DNA of 64,000 bases from Dehalococcoidia bacterium (GCA_965219565.1 OZ244780.1:174287-238286); one strand, 5' to 3'. Counted from the first letter of the stretch, positions 2,015 through 14,649 are shown. Numbers and translations are program-made. Notes: a model not told the origin generated them from the sequence alone.

Positions 2015-3667
2015 CTAGCGGCTGAAGATGGGGATGGGCAGCTTCCTTATAAAAAACGAAACCACGAACAATGCCAGGCCCACTCCCATCGCCGTTGCAG
2101 CTATCGGAATAGTTCCCGATACCATGTCTGAAGACATGGACGAGAACACGTCCGAGACGATGTCAACGATGCTTGTGGGTATATCCGGTTCATCGATGAT
2201 GATGTTGTTCAACAAACTCTCAATCGCCCTCTTCACCACTATGGCGATTATCAGCGCTATGGCGCCGCTGATGAACAGGACGATGCCTGGGATACGGAAC
2301 AGAGACGCCATGCGAGGATATTGCAAGGCGCCCAGCAGCAGGGTCCCCACCACGACAGCGACTATGGTCAGCGTCAATCCCAGGCGGGTGGTCGCATTAT
2401 AGTCCCTGGCCGGTTCCAGATCGTCCAGAAATTCCTCACGCGTCTTGTCATCGGCCTCGGCGGCGATCTCCACGAGGTCCAGGCGGCGGTCTTCGTCAAG
2501 TTCCTCGTCCACGAACTCTTGGATCGCTTCATCAATGACCGGGCCTGCAATGGTGGCCGCCGTCGTTTTCAGCGCCCCCTTTATGTCTCCCTCGCTAAGC
2601 GGGACCTTGATGGCGGCTTCCTGATCCCGTAGAGCGTTGACGGCTGAGCGCGGGAACGCAGGTTCGGCCTCCAACTCCTCGATAGCACGGTCGAAAATCA
2701 GGTCGGAGACGCTGTCGCTCAGGGACCTAGGGTCACGCAACTCTGGGATGGTCTCAGGAATTCGCCCCTCTTCCAACTCCTTCCACAGAAAGGCCAACTC
2801 CTCCGCCATCTCGACGGCGCCGTCGACCTCCTTGGTTGGAATCTCGTCGACGGTTTCCGAAAGCGCTCTGTTGATGACCGGGGTGGCGATTGTAGATGCC
2901 GCCGTTTTGAGCACACCCTTCGTGTCGACAGCGACAAGGGACTTCTTAATCGCGTCTTCCTGCTTTAGCAGGCCGTCGATGCCTGATTGGAGGAACGTAG
3001 GGTCGGACTCCAGTTCCTCGATTGCTCGATCAAAGATAAAGTCAGCGATGCTGTTGTTAAGGGATGACGGGTCCCGAAGCGCGGGGATAGTTTGAGGAGG
3101 CTCGCCCTCTTCAAGCCCTTTCCAGAGGGCGGCCAGCTCGTCCGCCATCTCTTCGACGTCCTCTACCTCCTGGGTCGGAATCTCGTCGATGCGCCGGTCA
3201 ATGTAGGCGAGGACCGTGGGCTTGATGTTGTCGATGGGCGTAGCCAGTTCAATGAATACCTGAGCCTCTTCCGAGTCCCGCTTCAGGTAGTCTAGTGCGC
3301 CCGTGAGAGCATTCTCGATCTGGCCCTGGAGATAAACGGGTGGAAGGATGCTTCGCGTGACCTCCACGACGTCTTCATGGGGGACTTCAACTCCGGCCAC
3401 CAGATATTCCGTCTGTTTCTCAAACTCCGGGTCTAAGAGGACCTCGTCGTAAATCCGGTCGTAGACCGAATTCTTAGAGATGTTCTCGGCGTAGAAATCG
3501 GCGGACAGGAAATTGCTGCGGAAGCCGCTGACAACCACAAAGCACAGGAACCCGACGATAACGACTACAGCAAGGACTAATCCCAGTATCGGGCGCAAGA
3601 CCGCCAACACGAAAATCAAGCCGCACCTCCCCTTTCCGTCGACGTCTCTCCGCCAGCTTTTCCGCAA
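2015..3667 (-). CDS. Membrane protein of unknown family with an internal 2 x 112-aa tandem duplication
   Basis: 550-aa ORF. N-terminal TM segment (LIFVLAVLRPILGLVLAVVVIVGFLCFVVV), acidic helical middle with repeats at aa 160-271 and 273-384, and 3-4 C-terminal TM helices. Confidence 0.6.
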   Translation of the reverse strand: MRKSWRRDVDGKGRCGLIFVLAVLRPILGLVLAVVVIVGFLCFVVVSGFRSNFLSADFYAENISKNSVYDRIYDEVLLDPEFEKQTEYLVAGVEVPHEDVVEVTRSILPPVYLQGQIENALTGALDYLKRDSEEAQVFIELATPIDNIKPTVLAYIDRRIDEIPTQEVEDVEEMADELAALWKGLEEGEPPQTIPALRDPSSLNNSIADFIFDRAIEELESDPTFLQSGIDGLLKQEDAIKKSLVAVDTKGVLKTAASTIATPVINRALSETVDEIPTKEVDGAVEMAEELAFLWKELEEGRIPETIPELRDPRSLSDSVSDLIFDRAIEELEAEPAFPRSAVNALRDQEAAIKVPLSEGDIKGALKTTAATIAGPVIDEAIQEFVDEELDEDRRLDLVEIAAEADDKTREEFLDDLEPARDYNATTRLGLTLTIVAVVVGTLLLGALQYPRMASLFRIPGIVLFISGAIALIIAIVVKRAIESLLNNIIIDEPDIPTSIVDIVSDVFSSMSSDMVSGTIPIAATAMGVGLALFVVSFFIRKLPIPIFSR

Positions 3668-3740
3668 CGAGGTGTGAATCTCCGGCGTACTATATCAGAC
3701 TTGGTCCGGCAGTTTACGCTTCAAGGGGCGGGTTGGAGGA

Positions 3741-4175
3741 TCAATAGACCAGGGACTGTACCCAGAAAGAGCAGCCCCACAGCTCGGCGCCGCCGATTTT
3801 ATGCTTGCGTCTCGGCTCGGCCTTGACGCACTCGGCCGCAGGCAATCCCTCCAGGATGACCCTACGCATCAGGCTTTTCACGGAAGAGGGACTGTTGGCT
3901 GACACATACTTTTCCAGCTCTGCGTAGGCTTCGGCATCGTCGGACAAGTCAACCAGGACCAGCACCTCCAGGTTATAAACCGACTGGGGGTCCGTTGCCC
4001 GGTATTCCGCCGCCGCCGAGTGGTTGGAGGCCTGGAGGTCCCGTATCACCGCCGCCGGAAACTCCTGGATGCAATCTGGCGGGTGATTGTACACTCGAAG
4101 GCCTTCCACCGTCCCCAATTGGGCCGCCATCTCGTCGACGATGGCTTTGAGTTCCCCCGATGTTGGAGCTACCAT
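3741..4175 (-). CDS. Phage-like neck / tail-completion-like protein (DUF3168-like pattern), hypothetical
   Basis: The ATG at 4175 overlaps the upstream stop (ATGGTAG); product is 144 aa. The pattern L..VEGLRVYNHPP....EFPAAVI resembles tail-completion/neck proteins. The 189-aa extension of ORF 3741..4310 overlaps the upstream gene and was rejected. Confidence 0.5.
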   Translation of the reverse strand: MVAPTSGELKAIVDEMAAQLGTVEGLRVYNHPPDCIQEFPAAVIRDLQASNHSAAAEYRATDPQSVYNLEVLVLVDLSDDAEAYAELEKYVSANSPSSVKSLMRRVILEGLPAAECVKAEPRRKHKIGGAELWGCSFWVQSLVY

Positions 4176-5017
4176 CCCTGACCCCCTACCGGGTTCTTGC
4201 GGTAGGCCGCCAGGAGCAGCGCCACGTCCGGATCCAAGGCTTTGGACACGCCGCCCAGCCCGGTCCGACGCTGTTCCGCTGCTTGGAAGCCTCCGTCCCG
4301 CCGCTTCCACAGGCGCGACGCCTGTATGAGGCAGGCCTCGGCGACCCCGTTGGGGTACACCAGCCTGGCGATAGGTGAGCCGTCAAAGTGAGCCGCTGCC
4401 GCCGTTCCGTTCACACCCCGGACGATAGTCAGTTCGCTGACTGATACTGCAGTGACGTACAATTGCTCATTGTCTATCAAGAGGGTCTGGCCTGCTGATA
4501 GATTCGCGGCGGTGGTGACCGTAATGGCGGTTGCGCCCGCCGACAGTTCCTCTCCTTGGTTCACAGCGGCGCCGGTGTCTTCCGTCACCTCCCTGTATCC
4601 CCACTTGCCGTTCACCTCCACCGTTCGGAGTCCCGTGGGGAAGAGAGTCTTGCTGCCCGCGTCCACATCCACCAGCGCCCTGGTATAGGGGCGGCCCCAG
4701 GGCTTGTCTGGTCGAGCGTTTGGCGGATAGAGCAGATAGTCAGTAACAGCCCATATTGCCTCGAAGGTTCGGTCTCGGTCATCGTCCGTCCTGAGCGAGG
4801 TTACGTTTATCAGGTCGGGGACTCCTAGCTCCTTCCCTCCGTCGCCGTCGAAGAACCGGGACTCCTCCACAACATAGAACCTCCGGTTGCAGTAGTGGTC
4901 GATGAGCCTGGACACTGCCTCCAGAAGGTCCAGCAGCCTGGAATCGTAGGCGGCGCCTGATATGTTCAGGACACCCGCCGATTTCAGAGTCGTCAGGTCA
5001 GCGTAAGCGTTGGTCAT
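4169..5017 (-). CDS. Phage head-tail connector (gp6 / SPP1 gp15-like N-terminus) with unassigned C-terminal half
   Basis: 282-aa ORF. The N-terminus YADLTTLKS...YDSRLLDLLEAVSRLIDHYCNRRFY matches the connector family pattern. Position is downstream of the capsid gene. Confidence 0.6.
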   Translation of the reverse strand: MTNAYADLTTLKSAGVLNISGAAYDSRLLDLLEAVSRLIDHYCNRRFYVVEESRFFDGDGGKELGVPDLINVTSLRTDDDRDRTFEAIWAVTDYLLYPPNARPDKPWGRPYTRALVDVDAGSKTLFPTGLRTVEVNGKWGYREVTEDTGAAVNQGEELSAGATAITVTTAANLSAGQTLLIDNEQLYVTAVSVSELTIVRGVNGTAAAAHFDGSPIARLVYPNGVAEACLIQASRLWKRRDGGFQAAEQRRTGLGGVSKALDPDVALLLAAYRKNPVGGQGW

Positions 5018-5030
5018 AGCAGCCTCCGCG

Positions 5031-5060
5031 CGGCTCCTTCCCGTTTCAGGGAAGGAGCCG
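5031..5060 (-). other. 12-bp GC-rich intercistronic stem-loop without a T-tract
   Basis: CGGCTCCTTCCC-GTTTCA-GGGAAGGAGCCG, between the 150-aa gene and the connector gene. Confidence 0.4.
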
Positions 5061-5104
5061 GTAAATCGGTCTCAAGGTCCTGGAGATGGCGGCGGCGGCC
5101 CGCG

Positions 5105-5557
5105 CTACACTTCTACGTAGAAGATATAGGCGTGGCCGGCAAGTCCGGCGGCTGAGCCTGTGGCCTTGCTGCCGGTGAGGTAGTCGGTCCTCCCCCCTTT
5201 GGCGTCCAGCCGTTGCATGGACTTGCCGTTAACGCCCTTGTGGTCGATGTTGCCTTCCACGCCTTTAGCGGCGTTCACGTCCAGCCCGTCGATCAGATTG
5301 TCCGATGACCGGTTCCCTCGGGAAGCGGAGCCGAAATCTACGGTGCACGCGGCGCTGGAACTGGCAGTTCGGTCTATGACCAACCGGACCACGATGATTG
5401 GACCGGCCTCCGGGTTTCGCCAGGCCAACACCCCTCCTCTGGCATCGGAGCTTCCCAGGGAAGCCTTGGCGCACTTCAGGGCCGCAGGAGCGACGTCCGA
5501 GGTGAGCATGTCCTTCACCTGCTCGGCGAGGGGGCTGTCTTTCGACGGGTTGGCCAC
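5105..5557 (-). CDS. Hypothetical phage structural protein (position of a decoration/accessory head protein)
   Basis: 150-aa ORF lying 42 nt downstream of the capsid gene on the same strand, with host-like codon bias. No family recognised. Confidence 0.45.
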   Translation of the reverse strand: MANPSKDSPLAEQVKDMLTSDVAPAALKCAKASLGSSDARGGVLAWRNPEAGPIIVVRLVIDRTASSSAACTVDFGSASRGNRSSDNLIDGLDVNAAKGVEGNIDHKGVNGKSMQRLDAKGGRTDYLTGSKATGSAAGLAGHAYIFYVEV

Positions 5558-5599
5558 GCGTTTCTCCTTGGGTAGCAGAGTCCCGGTGGGCGCGGCGGT

Positions 5600-6934
5600 C
5601 TACGCCACGCCCGTGATGTTGTACTGCAAAGCTGTGTGGGTTGCGGTGGACCTGCTTCCCGTTCTCTCGGCGAAGGCAATTCGCAGGCTCACCACCATGA
5701 TGTTCTGTCGCTTCTGGATGTCTCGATCAGTTTCGATGGCAAGCTCCCGGCGGAAACCGACCCTCCATTGGGACCGGTTCACGATGAGCAGCCGTCCGGT
5801 GTTTGTCACGTTTCCTGCGTCGGTCACCTGTCCGTCGGTGTCCGCCAGCTTCATCTGCTCCGACACGATGACAGGGATCCCTTCAACGGCACCAAGCTGC
5901 CCCCTTAGCACGGTGGCGTTGGGCCCCAGCTTGTCCAGGGTGCGGAAGGTGTCCACGCTCAAGGCCCGGATGTACGTGTTCACGTCCATGAGGTAGGCCA
6001 GTTCGGACGGCCGCACGCCGTACTTGCCGAGCTTGCCCCGCACTTCGTTGAACATGCCGTCGGACACGGCGGCGCTATGGTCGTTGGCCTGGGCGGTGTT
6101 GTCCACCAGCGGCAGATGAAGCAGCCCGTCGAATCCCAGCAGCCAGTGTCCCTTGCCCACGTCAGACTTTGATATGGTGGCTTCGTCAGCGTTGATGTTG
6201 TTCACCGTCGTCGCATCGCCGTTGAGGACCACGTCGTCGATTACCTCCGCGGCGTTGCGCACCAGCCCGCTGCGGACCTCCTGGGCCATGGCAATCACCG
6301 CGTCCTCGTCCAACGTCAGGGACCAGGGCACCTGGCCCACCAGCTCGTAGGAAGTCAGCGTCTGCTTGGCGGTGTTCAACGCCGTCGCGGTCACGGCCAG
6401 GTTCTCGGTGCCGGGATACCAGTTCACGTCGCCCAGCTGAAGCGGTATCTCGAAGGGGTCCGAGGGCATATCCACCCTGGAGAACAGCGGAGCCACCATG
6501 GTCTCCAGGTTCACGTCCATCCAGAGGGTCGAGGCTTCCTGGGTGGGGACCAGTTCGTCGCCGGAGCCGGCTGTGGTGGAGTCCATGGCCGCTTTCAGGT
6601 TCGACTGCCACTCCTCCAGCATCCGAGGGTTCAGGCCCAGGGGTTGGCGTATCTGGGCGTTGAGCAGACTCCGCATGTAGGCCAGGTCCAGCAAGTCCAG
6701 GCCCTGGTACTTCCCGTAGGGCACCCTGGGCCGGTCCTGCCCGCCGTACTTGCCCAGGAGCGCTTGCTTCTCTCCGTTCTTCCACATCTCCCGGATGCGG
6801 GCAATCTGGGCCGAAACTCGGCTCACCTCTTCCTTGAGCGGAGGAAGCTCACTGTCGATGCGGGCGTTGTAGAACTCCCGCACACCGGCCACTTCCTTCT
6901 TGATTAGGTCCAAGTCTTGAGCGCTGATGGTCAT
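5600..6934 (-). CDS. Major capsid protein, HK97 fold, with N-terminal coiled-coil (delta/scaffold-like) region
   Basis: 444-aa ORF. Coiled-coil N-terminus (KEEVSRVSAQIARIREMWKNGEK), then a typical HK97 core (DELVPTQEASTLWMDVNLETMVAPLFSRVDMPSDPFEIP). Sits directly after the prohead protease. Confidence 0.85.
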   Translation of the reverse strand: MTISAQDLDLIKKEVAGVREFYNARIDSELPPLKEEVSRVSAQIARIREMWKNGEKQALLGKYGGQDRPRVPYGKYQGLDLLDLAYMRSLLNAQIRQPLGLNPRMLEEWQSNLKAAMDSTTAGSGDELVPTQEASTLWMDVNLETMVAPLFSRVDMPSDPFEIPLQLGDVNWYPGTENLAVTATALNTAKQTLTSYELVGQVPWSLTLDEDAVIAMAQEVRSGLVRNAAEVIDDVVLNGDATTVNNINADEATISKSDVGKGHWLLGFDGLLHLPLVDNTAQANDHSAAVSDGMFNEVRGKLGKYGVRPSELAYLMDVNTYIRALSVDTFRTLDKLGPNATVLRGQLGAVEGIPVIVSEQMKLADTDGQVTDAGNVTNTGRLLIVNRSQWRVGFRRELAIETDRDIQKRQNIMVVSLRIAFAERTGSRSTATHTALQYNITGVA

Positions 6935-7003
6935 CTCTCCTCCTTGAGTTTGTGAGTTTTGTCCTTCCGTTTCCCAATGTCTCTCGTTGCTCTTCCGGGA
7001 CGC

Positions 7004-7708
7004 CTAAGCAGCGGGGTGGGCGACAAACCGTAGGCTCTCCACTACTTGCCGCAAGGCGTCGTCCCAGGGGACCCGTTCCATCTCCTCCAGTCCCAGGCTG
7101 GCGTAATAGGCCTCCATCCTTGGCGAGCGGCTCAAGGCCTTCCTCAGGGCGCCCTGGTTGGCCGGAACGGGAGCCGCGCTTATCTCCAGCAGTTCCTGTT
7201 CCAAGAACCGCACACCCAACGCCTTGCCCGTGTCCGCGTCCCTCCGCAGCTCGTACCTGATGGGCCTGAAACCCACCGACACTCCCCGCTGGTAGCCGTC
7301 CCGGTAGAGGTCGGCCACCTCCCGAGCAAAGTCTGTTGGCGCGAACTGCACCCGCGCTACGAGGTTGTTCCCCTCGGCCCACAGCTCCCTCGTGCGGCCT
7401 ATGGCAGGCCTGGTGTAGTCGTGGGCCCACAGGAACACCGGGTTCTTGAGATAGGACTGGAGACGCCATCCCTGCAGCGAAATCACGTCGCCGTGGCGGT
7501 CTACGTCGTCGTTGGAAACGACGAACGCCATTTGCTGCTCTCCGGCTTCCGTTGCTGACGCTTGCGGGAAGGCCGGAGCTGAGACGGATTCACCGGCGGC
7601 CGCGACCGAGGTCCACTTCCGCAAATAGGGCGCGTCGCTGAGTCCCTGCCGGTATGAGTCCAGCGACTCCAACAGCCGCTCCCGTTCCCATTGCTCTATG
7701 TCGTTCAT
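7004..7708 (-). CDS. Prohead maturation protease, HK97 (S78/U35) family
   Basis: 234-aa ORF. FVVSNDDVDRHGDVISLQGWRLQSYLKNPVFLWAHD is typical of the family. GGAAGGGAGG lies upstream of the ATG. Confidence 0.85.
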   Translation of the reverse strand: MNDIEQWERERLLESLDSYRQGLSDAPYLRKWTSVAAAGESVSAPAFPQASATEAGEQQMAFVVSNDDVDRHGDVISLQGWRLQSYLKNPVFLWAHDYTRPAIGRTRELWAEGNNLVARVQFAPTDFAREVADLYRDGYQRGVSVGFRPIRYELRRDADTGKALGVRFLEQELLEISAAPVPANQGALRKALSRSPRMEAYYASLGLEEMERVPWDDALRQVVESLRFVAHPAA

Positions 7709-7757
7709 GCAGGGCGCCTCCCTTCCGATTTAGTTTTCGCTCTTCTGGGGCCAGGGC

Positions 7758-7794
7758 AAAAAAAGAGGGACAGACCCGATTCAGGGTCTGTCCC
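7758..7794 (-). terminator. Intrinsic-terminator-like hairpin in the leader of the protease-capsid module
   Basis: Minus strand reads GGGACAGACCC-TGAATC-GGGTCTGTCCC then TC TTTTTTT G, about 50 nt upstream of the protease ATG. It is a paralogue of the hairpin at 13041..13078. Confidence 0.6.
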
Positions 7795-8028
7795 ATCGGC
7801 GCTGAAGCGGCCGGGCTGGCAATCCGGCCTTTTGTGACGCTCCAAATTCAGGCTACCGCCCGCCGCCCCAAGCGGTCAACGGGCCGATGTCACCTCCGCT
7901 CATGTTCCTGTCCCATCTGGTTTCAGAAAGCCGTCGGGTAGGGTAGAATGCATGCGTTCCGTTATCCGTAGGTTGCCCCTTCTCCCTTCCCTGCCCGTAA
8001 TCCCCCATGAAAGGATTCAACGGCGACA

Positions 8029-9450
8029 ATGACCCGCTTAGTCGTGATTCCTCTGGCATCCATACTGGCCGTGGTCCTTTTGGCCCTGGCCGGGCTGGCC
8101 GTGGCTACAGCCCAAGCCTCCGACCCGGATGTCAGCCCGTTCTACGACTCAAACGGCAACGGGGTGATTGACAGGGACGAGGTTATAACAGCCGTCGCAG
8201 ACTATTTCGCGGGTGTCATCACTAGAGACCAGGTCCTCGTCATCGTCCAGTACTACTTCAGCGGTGAGGCAGTCCCAGATATAGAGGACATCCTGCCGGA
8301 TGAGCCGCCCACCCGGTCCCTGAGTGAGGTCATCGAGGATGTGCGCCCGGCGGTGGTGTACGTCCGAAATCTCAAGGTGGGCAGCGGGAGCGGCGTCATA
8401 TTCAAGACCGAAGGCGAGACGGGGTACGTGATGACCAACTCCCACGTCGTGGACGACATGGAGGAGGGCCTATGGGTCAGGACCGATGACGAAGAGTGGT
8501 ACACTGCCACTTTGCTGCGAGCTGACCCCATCCGCGACCTGGCCGTGGTCACTATTTGCTGCGGTGAGTTCACGGCTTTGGACTTCGCTCAACCAGAGGA
8601 CGTCGAGGTCGGGGATGACGTGGTGGTAATGGGCTACCCGGACCCATTGTCGTATGACACAGCTACGGTGACTAAAGGCATCGTGTCAGCGTTACGATAT
8701 CGCTGGAGCCGAGCTAGCATAATTCTGCAAACTGATGCTGCCAGCAATCCTGGCAACAGCGGCGGCCCCATACTGTCCACTGACGGCCTTATAGCAGGCA
8801 TCGTTCACTCGCGCTCCGAGGAGGGACGTGACGACCGTCCCCGTTTTGGGCTGAGTTATGGAGCGGCTGTGGCGACCATACAGGAGCACATGACTTCGCT
8901 GATTACGCCCGGAGGTGAGTTTATCTTCGAGGATATCTCAGGCGAGCTTCGCCACCAACCCGACGATGACAATATCGTGCAACGCGTATTCAATATGAAC
9001 TATATCGATGGCCGAGCCGATGTAGAGCTAGAGACAACCTTCACGAACCCGTATTCTGCCAGCACACAGCTTTGGTCCTACGGATTAACGGTCCGCTATG
9101 ACCCCGACAGACAAGATGATGAAGACCTGCCCGATCTCAGGATTCTTATTGACAGTGAACGCAGATGGCGGGTACAGATGGCCGTGACTGGGCCTGATGA
9201 GGTTATCGCTAGTGGACAAGCCACCAACATTATGGTCGACGAAGGGGAACGGAACCATATCAAGGTAAGGGCCGTTGGCGATACAGCTCAGTTGTACATA
9301 AACGGCCAGCAGGTTGGGGGCAACATAGACATTAGCTCCGTGCCCCATCCTGGCGACATCGGAGTGTTCACCGGCTATTGGACCGGCAGTGAACGTGACG
9401 GGGCCGTAACTGAGTTTGAGAACTTGCGCGGCAAGCTGCTTGACCAGTGA
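8029..9450 (+). CDS. Secreted trypsin-fold (S1) serine protease with Ca-binding loop and C-terminal beta-rich domain
   Basis: Signal peptide ending ATAQA|SD; DSNGNGVIDRDE loop; catalytic triad contexts TNSHVV, RDLAVV, GNSGGP. An unassigned C-terminal domain of about 190 aa follows. Confidence 0.8.
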   Translation: MTRLVVIPLASILAVVLLALAGLAVATAQASDPDVSPFYDSNGNGVIDRDEVITAVADYFAGVITRDQVLVIVQYYFSGEAVPDIEDILPDEPPTRSLSEVIEDVRPAVVYVRNLKVGSGSGVIFKTEGETGYVMTNSHVVDDMEEGLWVRTDDEEWYTATLLRADPIRDLAVVTICCGEFTALDFAQPEDVEVGDDVVVMGYPDPLSYDTATVTKGIVSALRYRWSRASIILQTDAASNPGNSGGPILSTDGLIAGIVHSRSEEGRDDRPRFGLSYGAAVATIQEHMTSLITPGGEFIFEDISGELRHQPDDDNIVQRVFNMNYIDGRADVELETTFTNPYSASTQLWSYGLTVRYDPDRQDDEDLPDLRILIDSERRWRVQMAVTGPDEVIASGQATNIMVDEGERNHIKVRAVGDTAQLYINGQQVGGNIDISSVPHPGDIGVFTGYWTGSERDGAVTEFENLRGKLLDQ

Positions 9451-9516
9451 AGGGACCACATGCCGCTCTGTGTGCCATCACCACGCCCGCCGCTAGTTGT
9501 TTAATGCCCTTAGCGA

Positions 9517-9987
9517 CTAATAGCACCCCGTCCATTCCACGTCCGACGGCCAGGGTATGAACTCGATCGTGCGGCCGCTTACGGATTTGAATACGGCCAG
9601 GTCATCTCTAACCAGCTCAATCGTGCCCCGACTGTCATCGGAAGTCCAACCCGGCGGCGGATTGTAGTTGCCCAGCATTGGATCGGCCATCCAGACCCGT
9701 CCATCGAAGTGAGCGTCGCGGACACCGCAGTGGACGTATAAAGTGTATGGATACGTGTCTCCGATTTCCGCGCCCGGTCCTTGAGGCGGTCTCTCTAGGA
9801 GTTCTGGGTCCACTGTGGGCATCGGCGCCGGTGTCGCCGTTGGAGATGTTGGTTGAGCGGTCGGGATGGAGGAGCCGTCGCATCCTGCTGTGGCCACTAT
9901 CAAGAAAACCAACAGTCCGCCGACAATGCTAAGCCTCGAAACTCCATGCCGCCTTCTCCCCTTTGATTCTTTCATGGCAGCCCTCAT
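9517..9987 (-). CDS. Lipoprotein, unknown function
   Basis: 156-aa ORF. GGAGGG lies 9 nt upstream of the ATG. Lipobox LIVATAGC is followed by a Pro/Thr-rich linker. Confidence 0.6.
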   Translation of the reverse strand: MRAAMKESKGRRRHGVSRLSIVGGLLVFLIVATAGCDGSSIPTAQPTSPTATPAPMPTVDPELLERPPQGPGAEIGDTYPYTLYVHCGVRDAHFDGRVWMADPMLGNYNPPPGWTSDDSRGTIELVRDDLAVFKSVSGRTIEFIPWPSDVEWTGCY

Positions 9988-10127
9988 CGAATAACCCTCC
10001 AGCTGAGGCGCCCCCCTTGTGGGTCAGGGACACCACCATGAATAAGACGTAGCGGCTCAGGAAAAGGTTCCCGGTGGAGGAGAACTTTTCACCCGCGGGC
10101 GGTTCCTTCTCCACATTCTCATTGTAG

Positions 10128-11375
10128 CTAAACGGCCCTCGGCCCGTCGCCCCAGGGCACGTCGGGCATGTTTCTGCTCCGGCGCACCTCGTTTATCGTG
10201 AGGACTCCCCGGTCCAGCAGCAGCGCTTCGCGGTTTGCCCGGTCGTTCTCGTCCTCCTTTAGCGCCTCGATGTCGGCCAGGTCGAACTCCACCCTTACGC
10301 CAGAGTGGCCCAGCATGGGAAGCAGCTTCTCGTTGATATGCTCCTCCAGGAACTTCATCTCCGGAATCATGGTGTTGCGCCAGAAGATGCGTTCCGCTGT
10401 GTTGATGTTCGTGAAGGTGGCGTTCTGGTAGTCGGACAGAAGTGGCATAGGGACTCCAAAGGTGCGGCTCACGTCCTCCAGGCTCCAGCGCAGGCCCTGG
10501 ACGAACTCCATCTCCCTGTGGGTGAATCCCAGCGTCTTAATGTCCTTAATAAAGCTGGCTATGGCGGGCCGGTGGGCGTTTCCTGGGCCTCTGAACCGCC
10601 GCTCCCAACGCTGGTAGAAGTCCTCCACCTCGTCGTCGGTCATCCCCTCCTCGGTGGTGAAGATGACATCGGGTTGAGCCGAGTTCCGGAAGAAGTTCCG
10701 GTTGAAGCGCATGGCGTCCGCCCCCATGTCGGCGGATAAACGCAGGGGCGCCATTGGCGACAGCCCGGCGTACTCGTCCATGGGGTTGAAGTAGCGGAAC
10801 CAAATCACCTCGTCTCTCGTATACGGCACAGGCCCTGTCGTTCCCATGTAGACGTATCCTTTGACGTACCGATGTCTGTCTGGCAGCACGCGCATCCGGT
10901 CGGGACGCAGAGGCCAGATTTCCCACCGGCCCTCGTCGTCCGGATCCAGCGCCCAGAAGGCCGAACCCCACAGGCTCAGGTAGGTCTCTGTAGCCCTCCA
11001 TAGGTCGCCCCTGGTGTGCCAGGGGTTCACCCGGTCTATAAGCTGCTGCACCGGGTGGTCAGGACTTACCGGAATCCACCCCGAGGAGCCGTCTCTGGCC
11101 AGCGCGGTAACCCCGGGCCGAGCCAGGGCTTCGCTCCGCACCCGAATTGCCGAGTATACGGGCACGGAGGAAGCGTAGTAGCTCCCGTACACCGTTTTGG
11201 CCCAGTCCTGTCCGACGCCCGAGGTCTCGCTATAGCGGTCCACGTCCACCCGGGAGGTGCGGTTGGCTTTGGCAACGTGCGAGGGACCTAGTCCGTTATC
11301 GCTCTTACCCTGCCTCCGGCCAAGCGCTCCCAGCGCGTGCTGCAACAGATTGGCGGACTTGATTGTGGTTGTCAT
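10128..11375 (-). CDS. Phage portal protein, HK97 family
   Basis: 415-aa ORF downstream of TerL. VPVYSAIRVRSEALARP...LIDRVNPWHTRGDLWRATETYLSLWGSAFWAL is typical of HK97-type portals. Confidence 0.85.
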   Translation of the reverse strand: MTTTIKSANLLQHALGALGRRQGKSDNGLGPSHVAKANRTSRVDVDRYSETSGVGQDWAKTVYGSYYASSVPVYSAIRVRSEALARPGVTALARDGSSGWIPVSPDHPVQQLIDRVNPWHTRGDLWRATETYLSLWGSAFWALDPDDEGRWEIWPLRPDRMRVLPDRHRYVKGYVYMGTTGPVPYTRDEVIWFRYFNPMDEYAGLSPMAPLRLSADMGADAMRFNRNFFRNSAQPDVIFTTEEGMTDDEVEDFYQRWERRFRGPGNAHRPAIASFIKDIKTLGFTHREMEFVQGLRWSLEDVSRTFGVPMPLLSDYQNATFTNINTAERIFWRNTMIPEMKFLEEHINEKLLPMLGHSGVRVEFDLADIEALKEDENDRANREALLLDRGVLTINEVRRSRNMPDVPWGDGPRAV

Positions 11376-11405
11376 GCTTTCCTCCGTTTGATTCTTCTAC
11401 TGCGC

Positions 11406-11504
11406 TTCGCCCAAGGCTAACTGGGGGGTTCGGATACCGTTCGTGCTGAGCTTGTCGAAGCACACCACCCCGAGATATCCCTTTGATATGTTTCGCCCAA
11501 GCCT
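11406..11504. repeat. MITE-like ~73-nt insert flanked by 13-nt direct repeats
   Basis: TTCGCCCAAGGCT (11406-11418) and TTCGCCCAAGCCT (11492-11504) flank a segment containing the hairpin GTGCT-GAGCTTGTCGA-AGCAC. It sits exactly at the TerL stop. Confidence 0.45.
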
Positions 11505-12862
11505 CACCCCCACAGCTTCACCCTCCGTCTATATGGCAGGAAGGCCAGCATCAGTGCGTCGGCTCTGTCCGGCGAACGAACTCCCCTCTTGCGCATGTCG
11601 TCCTTGCTCTCCACCAATAGCTGCCCGACGCTGTTGAAGCTGTACTTCAGGGAGGCCAATTCGCCCATCAATTCCTTGTCCGACGGCAGGAACACTTCGC
11701 CGTTGGTGATCATCTGGCGCAGGTTCCAGTATCCCTCCGCTCTAAGATTGGCAAAGCGGCTTGGGTCATGGGCGGCTCGTCCCACGTTCACGCCGTCCAC
11801 CCTGTATCCCAGTTCCTTCAGCCGGTCCACCACACCGGCCCCTATGCCCACCTCGTCCACCACCACGTCCTCCGGGTCCGCCTCTTTGATGGCGGCCACC
11901 ACGAGGCCCGTCAGCTTCATGGTGTCCAGGCCCCGGAATGTCCGCACTGGCTTGACCTGACCGCCCCGGCGCACGAGGATTACGCTTCTGTCGCTGCCGA
12001 ACCGGGCCACGTCTACGGCTACCACCGTCGGCTGGGGTGCGTCGTCCTGCTCCACTGCCCCGCCCGAGACCTTGGCCGCGCCTTCTATTGCGGAGAGAGG
12101 AATCAGCGTGTCCTCCGACTGCTCCGGGAACTCGCCCAACACCCTGGCCTGAAATATGGGGTTGTCCTCCCCCCATATCTTCCGCCGCTGCTCCACCCAT
12201 CTCGCGGTCACCAGGCCGGGCACCGTCTGTGCGCCCCCCGCCACGTTGGGGCTGTCGTAGGCCGATATAGTTATGGTGTGGTACAGCTCCCTGTCCTCGT
12301 GGAACGCCCGGCGGAAGGAGCCGGTGACGGTCGTGGGGTTGCCAATAAGCAGCAACCGGCAGTTCTCCGAGGTCATCAGAGCCTCTATGGCTTCGTAGAT
12401 GGGCTCGGCGACTCCCTCTGCCTCATCCACCACTATGAGCATGTTGGCGCTGTGAAAACCCTGGAACTCATCGGGGCTGTCAGCGGATAGCCCCATGGCG
12501 AAGCTGTCTCTTTCGGGCATCTCCAGGCGGGTGTCCAGCAACTTCCCGCCCAGGTCGAATTTTGCGTTGCGGTAGCGGCGGTGCACCTCTTTCCAGAGGA
12601 TGTGGCGGACCTGCCTGAAGGTCGGAGCCGTGCTCAACGCCACGGCGTGCTCGTGGCAACTCATGAACCAGAGGATTGCCACCGCCGCCGAGAACCCCTT
12701 TCCCAGCCCGTTGCCCGACTTCACCGCCACCCGTTCGTTAGCCGCGACGGCGGTTAGAGCCTCCACCTGCTTTGACCAAGGCTCCACTCCCAGGACTTTC
12801 CGAGCGAAGTAGACGGGGTCTTCCCGGTGCCGCTTGGTGCATTTATATGGCTTCTTGTTCAA
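11504..12862 (-). CDS. Terminase large subunit
   Basis: 452-aa ORF. Walker A SGNGLGKG, Walker B LIVVDEAEG, and a C-terminal nuclease-like VVAVDVARFGSDRS. The start is a TTG with no SD; the first ATG lies after Walker A. Confidence 0.85.
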   Translation of the reverse strand: MNKKPYKCTKRHREDPVYFARKVLGVEPWSKQVEALTAVAANERVAVKSGNGLGKGFSAAVAILWFMSCHEHAVALSTAPTFRQVRHILWKEVHRRYRNAKFDLGGKLLDTRLEMPERDSFAMGLSADSPDEFQGFHSANMLIVVDEAEGVAEPIYEAIEALMTSENCRLLLIGNPTTVTGSFRRAFHEDRELYHTITISAYDSPNVAGGAQTVPGLVTARWVEQRRKIWGEDNPIFQARVLGEFPEQSEDTLIPLSAIEGAAKVSGGAVEQDDAPQPTVVAVDVARFGSDRSVILVRRGGQVKPVRTFRGLDTMKLTGLVVAAIKEADPEDVVVDEVGIGAGVVDRLKELGYRVDGVNVGRAAHDPSRFANLRAEGYWNLRQMITNGEVFLPSDKELMGELASLKYSFNSVGQLLVESKDDMRKRGVRSPDRADALMLAFLPYRRRVKLWG

Positions 12863-12871
12863 CAGGCCGTC

Positions 12872-13027
12872 CTAGGCGCCCAGCGCCGGAGCATGGGTCG
12901 GACTGCTGTCAGAAGGACTGAAGATGAAGCCGCATCCCCGGCATCTATAGACCTCGTTGTCTTTGTCCAGCCGTTTAGCCAGCCTGATCAGGCGGACATC
13001 TCCGCAGCGTCGGCAATGCAATTCCAT
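12872..13027 (-). CDS. 51-aa zinc-ribbon protein (CxxC-x20-CxxC), in frame with TerL
   Basis: Found by hand (too short for the ORF track): MELHCRRCGDVRLIRLAKRLDKDNEVYRCRGCGFIFSPSDSSPTHAPALGA. GGAGGG lies 5 nt upstream of the ATG. Confidence 0.5.
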   Translation of the reverse strand: MELHCRRCGDVRLIRLAKRLDKDNEVYRCRGCGFIFSPSDSSPTHAPALGA

Positions 13028-13040
13028 GTATGCCCTCCAC

Positions 13041-13078
13041 AAAAAAAGGGGGACGGACCCGGAGCCCGGGTCCGTCCC
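13041..13078 (-). terminator. Strong intrinsic-terminator-like hairpin immediately upstream of the Zn-ribbon/TerL RBS
   Basis: Minus strand reads GGGACGGACCCGG-GCT-CCGGGTCCGTCCC then CC TTTTTTT G, followed by GGAGGG and the ATG. Confidence 0.6.
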
Positions 13079-13090
13079 GTTGAATATCAG

Positions 13091-13118
13091 TTTATGGAGC
13101 GGCTTTTTGCGGCGTCAA
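13091..13118 (-). promoter_or_regulatory. Possible sigma70-like promoter (TTGACG-16-CATAAA) feeding the leader terminator
   Basis: Motif match only. The -10 lies about 12 nt upstream of the hairpin. Confidence 0.3.
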
Positions 13119-13160
13119 CAGACAGGTGGCATGGGGTCAAGCATGAGACGTCTGTAGGAT

Positions 13161-13276
13161 TCCCTTCCCCCTTCAAGGGGCAAGGTCAGGATGGAGGTGG
13201 GGAGTCCGCACAAGGTCCGATGGCACATCTGCGCCATACTCCCTCTCCCTCAGGGAGAGGGTTGGGGTGAAGGGAG
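13161..13276. repeat. Two REP-like GC-rich palindromic units (C-arm/G-arm hairpin plus GGGGTGA-type tail)
   Basis: CCCTTCCCCCTTCAAGGGGCAAGG..GGAGGTGGGGAG and CCCTCTCCCTCAGGGAGAGGGTTGGGGTGAAGGG. Related copies lie at 34011, 36391 and 51351. Confidence 0.6.
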
Positions 13277-13314
13277 ACAATAAGAAGGGGCGGCGCATTT
13301 AAGTACGCCGCCCC
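13275..13314 (-). terminator. Probable terminator of the RdhA-like gene
   Basis: Minus strand reads GGGGCGGCG-TACTTAAATG-CGCCGCCCC then TTCTTATTGTCT, about 30 nt after the stop at 13345. Confidence 0.5.
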
Positions 13315-13344
13315 TCTGCGTTGGGCGTTATTCAAGGACGTGGG

Positions 13345-14649
13345 CTAGAACTCGTCCATGTCCTCAATGTCCCACTCCAAGTCCATGGCGTTGGCGGGAC
13401 CTTTGACCGCGTCTTCCAACCGTGAGCGGAACTCGGAGAACACTTCGTCTCCGTCCGTTCCTTGAGGCACCTCGCCTGACGACATCTTCTCGGTCAGGTC
13501 CTTGAGGAGGTACTCGCTGGCTGTGCCTTCCGGCACGTGGAAGAAGTCGGCGTCGAACCTGGGAAGTTCGCCGGGGCCGAAGTAGCCCGAGTCGTGCATC
13601 TCGAAGCCTTCCAGCAGGTGCGTGCCCTTGCCCAGCACCTCTCCGGTGGAAGCGTAGTGGTCCAGCACGTTGTGTAGGCCGTACCGCTGCACCGGGCATA
13701 CCTTCATGCAGATTCCGCATGCGGCGTACCGGGCCATCACCGGGCGGCACCTCTTGGCGATGAGCTTGAACTTCTCGACACCCCTCCACCAGACCTTCTC
13801 CCTCATGAGGGCGCGGCCCGGGCAGCGGTTCACGCACACCTGGCACACGGAACAGAAGGCGTGAATTCCGTAGTCCACTGGGCTGTCGTTTTCAAGAGGC
13901 ATGTCCGTTGTGATCATCATCAGGCGGTGCCGGGAGCCGAAGTGGGGAGACAACAGGTAACCCATCGCTCCCTGCTGGCCCATACCCGCCGCTACGAACA
14001 TTGGTATTACGGCCGTGCTGGCGTCGGTGGGGGCGTGAATCTGGGCGTGGAAACCGAGAGAGCGGATGTGCTCGGCGAAGGCCAGCGCAATGCCCGTCTC
14101 CCTCCGGTAGGTGGCGAACACGGCGGCCTCCGCCGGCTCGCTGGGAATGGTCTGGGTCTCTTCGTAGGGCTGCTCCAGCGCCAGGCATATGGCGTTGGGG
14201 AAGGGCTTGATCCAGTTCTTCTTGCTCTTGTAGGCGTACCGCTTGTCATAGGGCGTGATGCCCACCATGGAGAAGCCCAGTTCCATGGCCTTGTCCTTGA
14301 TATCATCCGTGTAGTCTTTAGACCAGTCGGCTTCGCCTTCGGGCTCCAGGGTGCCCGATAGGTTGGCCTCACGGATGAGTGGCTTGTTCAGCCGCTCGTG
14401 CTCGTCCCGGGTCTCTTTGATGTCGCTGACCGCCCGAGACCAAGCCCTGTACACGAAGTTCTCGACCTGGTGACTCTCCAGAGGATAGTGGACGCTGTAC
14501 CAGTCCACCGTCTTCTTGTCCTGGGGGGCTCCAGGGACGGTCTCCAGCTCCTCGGGGACTCCTATAACAGGGTCTTCGCCCGCTCCGGGGATTGGTCCCC
14601 TCAGCGTCTGAGGTACTTTGACACTGTGGCCTATCTTTAGCATGGGCAA
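13345..14649 (-). CDS. Reductive-dehalogenase-like / QueG-superfamily iron-sulfur protein, cytoplasmic type
   Basis: 434-aa ORF with two ferredoxin-type clusters (CSVCQVCVNRCP and CGICMKVCP). No twin-arginine signal, and no adjacent RdhB-like anchor gene. Confidence 0.6.
   Translation of the reverse strand: MPMLKIGHSVKVPQTLRGPIPGAGEDPVIGVPEELETVPGAPQDKKTVDWYSVHYPLESHQVENFVYRAWSRAVSDIKETRDEHERLNKPLIREANLSGTLEPEGEADWSKDYTDDIKDKAMELGFSMVGITPYDKRYAYKSKKNWIKPFPNAICLALEQPYEETQTIPSEPAEAAVFATYRRETGIALAFAEHIRSLGFHAQIHAPTDASTAVIPMFVAAGMGQQGAMGYLLSPHFGSRHRLMMITTDMPLENDSPVDYGIHAFCSVCQVCVNRCPGRALMREKVWWRGVEKFKLIAKRCRPVMARYAACGICMKVCPVQRYGLHNVLDHYASTGEVLGKGTHLLEGFEMHDSGYFGPGELPRFDADFFHVPEGTASEYLLKDLTEKMSSGEVPQGTDGDEVFSEFRSRLEDAVKGPANAMDLEWDIEDMDEF

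Follow-up and report, generated by a model that had tools for sequence, protein, structure and literature searches.

A zinc-ribbon gene and the TTG-initiated large terminase gene behind it probably form two ordinary neighbouring cistrons in a Dehalococcoidia head module

In HK97-like phages and in the gene transfer agent (GTA) RcGTA, the genes for the small and the large terminase subunit (terS-terL and g1-g2) are translationally coupled pairs, and a different use of neighbouring reading frames, programmed stop-codon read-through, is exemplified by the Q-beta A1 protein. A stretch of 64,000 nucleotides from a Dehalococcoidia bacterium (GCA_965219565.1 OZ244780.1:174287-238286), called the window below and numbered from its first letter, has on its minus strand a junction that shares features with both, because an open reading frame (ORF) for a small zinc-ribbon protein (ZnR) is followed in the same frame, after one TAG, by the gene for the large terminase subunit (TerL). 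As in the phage and GTA pairs, the small gene immediately precedes that of TerL in the same orientation, its stop overlapping the TerL start or lying within a few nucleotides of it, and genes for portal, prohead protease and capsid come next; ZnR and TerL co-occur strictly across genomes, and in one relative the ZnR domain sits in a protein with a recognisable small-terminase (TerS) domain. The likeness to programmed read-through, or to phage stop reassignment, is the one in-frame stop between two ORFs. From the comparisons below we conclude, with a probability of about 0.88, that ZnR and TerL are separate genes of one operon, TerL having a TTG start, a weak Shine-Dalgarno (SD) sequence and a probable coupling to ZnR.

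The ZnR gene (13027-12875) comprises 51 codons, starts at the ATG at 13027, and its product begins MELHCRRCGD...CRGCGFIFSPSDSSPTHAPALGA. Its SD sequence GGAGGG (13038-13033) lies 5 nt ahead of the ATG and has a duplex energy of -9.8 kcal/mol with the genome's own 16S tail GGATCACCTCCTTTCT. ZnR ends at the TAG at 12874-12872, and a 9-nt non-coding spacer, GACGGCCTG (12871-12863), leads to the TTG at 12862-12860 from which we read TerL, a gene of 452 codons (coding 12862-11507, or 12862-11504 with its stop included), so that the single TAG and the spacer are all that separates two ORFs of one frame. The first ATG in TerL is codon 67 and comes later than the Walker A motif SGNGLGKG at codons 49-56. 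Re-reading of the minus strand confirmed these points as a first-pass annotation of the window had given them, namely the in-frame TAG between the two ORFs, the zinc-ribbon ORF with its own GGAGGG-N5-ATG, and the first TerL ATG past Walker A. The observation is only partly confirmed, however, since its sequence facts are right but the significance attached to them is not, and the junction is best described as the ordinary boundary of two conserved neighbouring cistrons with nothing broken or recoded. The junction TAG-GACGGCCTG-TTG together with ZnR is identical in nine further independent assemblies, both short-read and long-read, and the same string recurs in loci L001 and L084, giving 11 independent assemblies in total; thus the TAG is real and not an assembly error.

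Comparison with homologues places the start of TerL at this conserved TTG, 9 nt beyond the ZnR stop. No other ATG, GTG or TTG codon stands between the TAG and the peptide conserved at the N-terminus, and the TTG is invariant across six aligned close sequences with 93–97% TerL identity (the window, L001, L084 and L081-L083). The window's N-terminus MNKKPYK...PVYFA aligns with M[RK]KPPYEP...PVxFA of the homologues, those with 60–68% identity begin at the residue equivalent to the TTG, and the best 120 open with M[RK]KPPYEPxxEHCxSPVxFAxxVLGVxLWSKQ, a residue-for-residue match to the TTG-initiated MNKKPYKCTKRHREDPVYFARKVLGVEPWSKQ. Moreover, the variable sites of TerL codons 1–60 in the close relatives are distributed 6/2/34 over the three codon positions, and this third-position bias argues that TerL is coding right from the TTG and is under purifying selection. 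The CTG at 12865-12863 was rejected as a start because it is CAG or TTT in close relatives, and the GTG at TerL codon 26 because it is GTC or GTT there.

In this setting TTG is evidently a normal start codon, with no need for an unusual start mechanism. A rough estimate from 973 long ORFs of the window's genome, with a crude SD-based call, gave ATG for 60%, GTG for 24% and TTG for 16%, the TTG figure being an upper bound. TTG is also the apparent start, by SD-guided choice, of 50 of the 77 ZnR genes found in homologous loci (12 have GTG and 15 ATG), where it stands two codons ahead of the first Cys and behind a strong GGAGGTG SD of -10 to -16 kcal/mol. As to TerL, the claim that it has no SD sequence of its own was overstated, for AGGA (12873-12870), which overlaps the TAG and lies 7 nt ahead of the TTG, pairs with the genome's own anti-SD at -6.4 kcal/mol, and a matching position in the longer spacers of relatives, about 8 nt ahead of the TTG, is occupied by GAGGA, GAGGGG or AGGGG. 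What stands of the claim is the weakness of this site: because 20% of random genome sites score as well, we call the TerL SD weak, not absent.

The relation of the two genes was followed in 84 Dehalococcoidia loci, made up of 80 loci, one per species, and four closer relatives. A ZnR homologue lies directly upstream of TerL in 77 of them, with the signature C-R-R-C-x-S-x-R-L-x-x-L-x-K-K-x3-D-N-x-V-[YF]-R-C-x-x-C-G-[FY]-[LI]-F-S-P, and the doubt that the small ORF might not be conserved at all has thus given way to strong conservation. The frame of ZnR relative to TerL (0/1/2) is 25/3/49 in the 77 junctions, which leaves 52 out of frame, and because 25 of 77 is close to one third, the shared frame is attributed to chance and is a coincidence in the window. 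ZnR stops with TAG in 15 of the in-frame loci and with TAA in 10. The first-pass annotation had itself named an independent TerL start, in another frame than the small ORF, as the observation in homologous clusters that would tell against it, and this is what those frames hold. Its suggestion to align homologous TerL genes in search of a fused zinc-ribbon N-terminus returned the split arrangement throughout and no fused form, and we take the split arrangement to be ancestral.

In 48 of the 77 loci the TerL frame offers an ATG, GTG or TTG (ATG in 31, GTG in 9 and TTG in 8) at a distance of -14 to +11 nt from the ZnR stop, and the start-stop distances have peaks at +5/+6 (19 loci), 0 (nine loci), -1 (six loci, as TAATG or TGATG) and -4 (five loci, as ATGA or GTGA). 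The two genes accordingly show what is looked for in a coupled pair, the same strand with stop and start close or overlapping, at 9 nt in the window. Such peaks are, as far as spacing can tell, the usual footprint of translational coupling, of which the stop, 9-nt spacer and TTG of the window would be the local version. Spacer length in this set of six close sequences is 9 nt for the window, L001 and L084 and 21–24 nt for L081-L083; the spacer shows indels of 12–15 nt, first- and second-position changes and an in-frame TGA, and appears to evolve as non-coding sequence. Variable sites in ZnR itself are distributed 12/8/32 over the codon positions, a coding pattern. ZnR of L083 ends with TAA, and ZnR of L082 has the TAG plus a second in-frame stop, TGA, in the spacer. 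We read the TAG at 12874-12872 as a genuine terminator, not a recoding site.

In the mechanism that we favour, ZnR is translated from its strong SD and ATG and ends at the TAG, and initiator tRNA reads the TTG at 12862 as fMet; initiation there would be aided by the weak AGGA overlapping that stop and, through coupling or re-initiation, by ribosomes fresh from termination on ZnR. Such coupling would make the yield of TerL depend on that of ZnR and hold it at a lower level. Three mechanisms had been proposed for the making of TerL, and only termination-reinitiation coupled to ZnR survives, in agreement with the conserved gene pair and the 48 of 77 close starts; the other two, discussed below, fail. 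Coupling of TerL to ZnR is probable from gene spacing. Classical SD-masking coupling was considered but gains no support, because the RNA fold around the TTG is no stabler than that of shuffled sequences (z = 0.02), and coupling by proximity or re-initiation rather than by SD unmasking is what we infer.

Several observations weigh against two coupled cistrons. The TerL SD is weak, as -6 kcal/mol is reached by 20% of random sites in a genome of 59.7% GC, and the RNA around the TTG, being no more structured than shuffles at that z, adds nothing in favour of the classical coupling by SD masking. Spacer lengths in the window's genus (9, 21 and 24 nt) differ by multiples of three and so keep the frame, an observation that represents only about two events. 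Furthermore, by chance alone a start codon would be expected in a stretch of 26 nt in about one third of loci (an estimate, not a computed value), and hence the argument from 48 of 77 loci rests on the sharp distance peaks and not on the total. An alternative is that TerL translation does not depend on that of ZnR and uses the gene's own weak SD and TTG, the closeness of the genes reflecting compact operon packing only. The AGGA 7 nt before the TTG, the stronger GAGGA or GAGGGG in relatives with 21–24-nt spacers, the 29 of 77 loci without a TerL-frame start close to the ZnR stop and the lack of an SD-masking RNA structure are all consistent with it; but independent translation does not explain the sharp distance peaks, including ATGA and TAATG overlaps, which are typical of coupled pairs, and it has to rely on an SD that one random site in five can equal. 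We consider independent translation possible but rather unlikely, and the coupled pair of cistrons to be the better description of the locus.

The two remaining explanations treat the TAG as something other than the end of ZnR, and the comparative data speak against both. Programmed read-through of the TAG, giving a regulated amount of a ZnR-TerL fusion beside free ZnR, was suggested by two ORFs of one frame that have just one stop and a spacer of 9 nt between them, and it can draw on the frame kept in six close relatives despite 12–15-nt indels and on the 25 of 77 loci in frame; that proportion, however, is the one third given by chance, and the frame is another in 52 loci. Neither a conserved in-frame relation (25/3/49) nor a conserved leaky stop with a coding spacer was found, since close relatives have TAG, TAA (L083), or TAG plus the in-frame TGA (L082), and the spacer evolves as non-coding. 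A suppressor tRNA had been proposed as something to look for in the genome, and ARAGORN found no CUA anticodon among the 47 tRNAs and the transfer-messenger RNA of the window's genome; TAG is, moreover, the commonest stop of ORFs of at least 300 codons (46%, with TGA at 31% and TAA at 22%). A tRNA-Sec gene is present in the same genome. ZnR-TerL thus differs from programmed read-through and stop reassignment in its unconserved frame and stop identity, its non-coding spacer, the missing suppressor tRNA and the use of TAG as main stop, and, as no intact fusion was found among 1.84 billion representatives or among length-matched proteins and the longer TerL entries in the database are gene-caller over-extensions through ZnR in another frame, read-through as a conserved mechanism is largely refuted by these comparisons and we regard it as very improbable for the window.

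Even less credit can be given to the idea that the TAG is a recent nonsense mutation or a sequencing error in an originally fused ZnR-TerL gene, with the consequence that TerL is no longer made and the packaging motor is inactivated. Its appeal lies in the missing ATG before codon 67 and in the weak SD. The junction is identical in the 11 independent assemblies, however, and the split arrangement is family-wide, with no fused, ancestor-like form; in TerL every residue that is invariant in the family is retained, purifying selection is seen from the TTG on, and most of the 28 family genomes have a single intact copy. Relaxed selection downstream of the stop and fused orthologues would be expected of a pseudogene, and the analysis gave 6/2/34 in the close relatives, motifs invariant in the family alignment and no fused orthologues in the databases searched. 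On the ancestral split, the identical assemblies, the intact TerL motifs and that codon-position pattern, the claim of an inactivated motor is refuted and retains practically no probability. The result at the junction is therefore a corrective one, with no recoding and no broken motor, and with a TTG-initiated gene packed tightly behind its upstream partner.

Fused proteins were also sought in databases. Words from the ZnR part of the hypothetical read-through product had no match among TerL-length proteins of a 5.8-billion-protein database, and a ZnR profile gave 162 matches among 1.84 billion representatives, none of them an intact ZnR-TerL fusion. Full-length, single-stretch matches to this profile are proteins of about 40–330 aa, the longer of which, where inspected, look like over-extended ORFs, and the long matches are unrelated multi-knuckle repeat proteins. 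One metagenomic protein of 220 aa, P0267, joins ZnR residue 26 to TerL residue 138 (…DNDVFR|SPNMLIVVDEAEG…); it was rejected as a functional ZnR-TerL fusion because it is without the second CxxC and without Walker A, and it is apparently a decayed deletion chimera, a remnant of a deletion. TerL entries of 480–548 aa in the database are N-terminal over-extensions through the ZnR gene in another frame (P0020, P0025, P0044, P0059, P0080, P0088, P0097, P0104 and P0113), and their recurrent 'RRLSLPRLRVSVQPAP' results from reading the ZnR motif 'DVYRCRDCGYLFSPP' out of frame. P0097 changes from the ZnR frame, in which it begins, to that of TerL, which indicates a frameshift or an assembly error. The ZnR gene was absent among the called genes of the contigs looked up. 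For annotation this means that many TerL entries of this family are over-extended and that the ZnR gene is uncalled in the contigs examined.

In three species (L059, at 3575-4000 of that locus, L067 and L071) ZnR and TerL have a further ORF between them, which encodes a zinc ribbon of the IS1595 type together with HTH_23 and runs without a stop into TerL, and TerL may there have a natural DNA-binding N-terminal extension. As support for a ZnR fusion this ORF was rejected: its matches are of the transposase type and not TerS, and because its ribbon is a different domain from ZnR it lends nothing to the idea of a ZnR-TerL fusion.

In the window, the protein encoded by the upstream cistron carries two CxxC knuckles (C5/C8 and C29/C32) and a tail, about 13 aa long, that is disordered. 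Members of the family are 40–100 aa long; some 35 residues form a conserved ribbon, in which C5, R7, C8, L16, R28, C29 and C32 are invariant, and the tail, rich in Pro, Gly and Ala, is variable. An AlphaFold2 (AF2) model of ZnR has two beta-hairpins (pLDDT, the predicted local distance difference test score, 77) and a disordered tail. Searches of Pfam and PHROGs gave only sub-threshold generic zinc-ribbon matches, or none, and no relative was found in 50,697 phage genomes. The best match of the ZnR profile to PDB sequences was a rubredoxin knuckle (E 0.003, one knuckle only), and in a Foldseek search of PDB and BFVD with the AF2 model all matches had E of at least 0.04. ZnR resembles generic zinc ribbons, including the Rpb9/TFIIS C-terminal ribbon, archaeal RpoM, RNase P Rpp21, ShdD and rubredoxin, in having two beta-hairpins with CxxC knuckles; its best Foldseek and hidden Markov model matches are to these proteins, all non-significant, and would indicate a fold class rather than a homologous family or a function. 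Many ZnR C-termini carry a tail motif SRT[VA]A[VM][QE]SGY about 5–10 residues before the stop (among them those of L010, L011, L017, L018, L024, L025, L047 and L076). The motif keeps to the ZnR frame whatever the frame of TerL, which makes it a protein motif, possibly a TerL-binding tail. The window's clade is without it (...SPSDSSPTHAPALGA).

By position ZnR behaves as a small terminase would, lying directly upstream of terL in 77 of 84 loci and being inherited together with it. In the window's family TerL is present in 28 of 28 genomes and ZnR in 27, mostly adjacent and single-copy; outside the family ZnR occurs in four of six genomes with TerL, as against one of 27 without it. In locus L097, a protein of 229 aa (P0185, 3527-4216) has a ZnR domain at residues 34–82 and a TerS domain, phrog_4044 (E 4.6e-14), at residues 118–185, and the last 10 nt of its gene are shared with the beginning of a TerL gene (4207-5550) whose product is 56% identical to that of the window. 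As a hypothesis, ZnR most likely acts with TerL in packaging or its control, to judge from this pattern of occurrence. A bolder proposal, in which ZnR would be a partner or regulator of TerL derived by reduction from a small-terminase type, is offered tentatively. ZnR differs from phage and GTA TerS in being a protein of 40–100 aa with a four-cysteine zinc ribbon and a disordered tail, with no helix-turn-helix (HTH) or oligomerisation domain and with no match to the TerS families of Pfam or PHROGs, nor in the 50,697 phage genomes, and taken alone it gave no sign of TerS homology in these, in PDB or in BFVD. What counts against a TerS-like role is that the case for it consists of position, co-occurrence and one fusion, with no TerS match in sequence or fold, and that this fusion comes from a single contig at 2x coverage; as a search for more ZnR-TerS fusions like P0185 gave only two frameshifted fragments, the architecture depends on this one low-coverage contig.

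In its fullest and still doubtful form, the proposal would make ZnR a new minimal terminase accessory subunit, in which a ribbon of about 35 residues and a flexible tail have replaced an HTH-type TerS within a vertically inherited GTA-like module; its level would be tied to that of TerL, it might act on the hairpin that stands in the leaders of both head operons, and L097 would represent an intermediate form. Among the titles and abstracts of the literature, none described a zinc-ribbon small terminase and none was clearly on GTAs in Dehalococcoidia or Chloroflexota. That ZnR occurs almost never apart from the TerL family, and in the position of a small terminase, is the more interesting residue of the analysis; if it is true that ZnR is a DNA-recognition or regulatory partner of TerL, this would help to explain packaging choice in the Dehalococcoidia head module.

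The leader of the ZnR gene holds a terminator-like hairpin, GGGACGGACCCGG-GCT-CCGGGTCCGTCCC (13078-13050), followed by CC and seven T residues (13049-13041), so that the element spans 13078-13041 and ends 2 nt ahead of the ZnR SD. Its form, GGGAC-N-GACCC...GGGTC-N-GTCCC with a T-run, has exactly two copies in the 3.18-Mb genome, one before the ZnR-TerL unit and the other before the protease-capsid unit (7794-7767, minus strand), and the two differ by a compensatory change from G:C to A:T. The hairpin is kept in all close relatives and also precedes ZnR in some 30 distant loci, in which compensatory changes affect one stem pair (GC in 20, CG in 8 and AU in 3). Because sequence and structure are both conserved, a specific regulatory target is suggested, for example antitermination or protein binding. 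An Rfam scan of 12700-13400 gave only a sub-threshold chance match. The ZnR family and this module-specific hairpin are the parts that deserve further work.

TerL appears to be an intact terminase. It matches phrog_2 (TerL) with E 9.5e-40, shares 36–41% identity with annotated phage TerL proteins across 95% of its length, and has the expected N-terminal ATPase with Walker A and B and the acidic residues of a C-terminal RNase-H-like nuclease. These motifs are all kept in the family alignment, in which G50-K55, D146 and E147, D284, D336 and E337, and D432 and D435 are invariant. Homologues number more than 3,500, the best 120 being 58–100% identical and nearly all 445–465 aa long. The Walker A motif is a deviant one, K-S-G-N-G-L-G-K-G-[FY] (TerL residues 48–57, window about 12721-12692), with G56 in place of the usual S or T after the lysine, and this glycine is invariant in 16 aligned TerL members.

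The window belongs to a single-contig Dehalococcoidia metagenome-assembled genome of 3.18 Mb and 59.7% GC. Past TerL come a portal gene (PF04860, 4e-66) and then a plus-strand trypsin-like insert, and the module, which spans about 3741-13078 of the window, further includes genes for an S78 prohead protease, an HK97-type capsid protein, a head-tail adaptor and a tail-terminator-like protein. It lies between host genes, with a 4Fe-4S/dehalogenase-like gene, RadA and ClpC upstream and a gene for a pyridoxal phosphate-dependent enzyme downstream; the 4Fe-4S gene upstream of the module is syntenic in L001, L004, L008 and L009. In a sample of genomes (G000-G259), TerL was found in all 28 from the window's GTDB family, usually as one intact copy. 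Of the order's 33 other families six have it, and so do 12 of 201 genomes drawn from the whole class, a set in which matches outside the window's own genome score much lower. Such a distribution is in keeping with a domesticated, GTA-like head module that has long been passed on vertically and has decayed now and then. Fragmented or stop-containing copies of TerL occur in the family members G205, G206, G211, G217, G224, G226 and G227.

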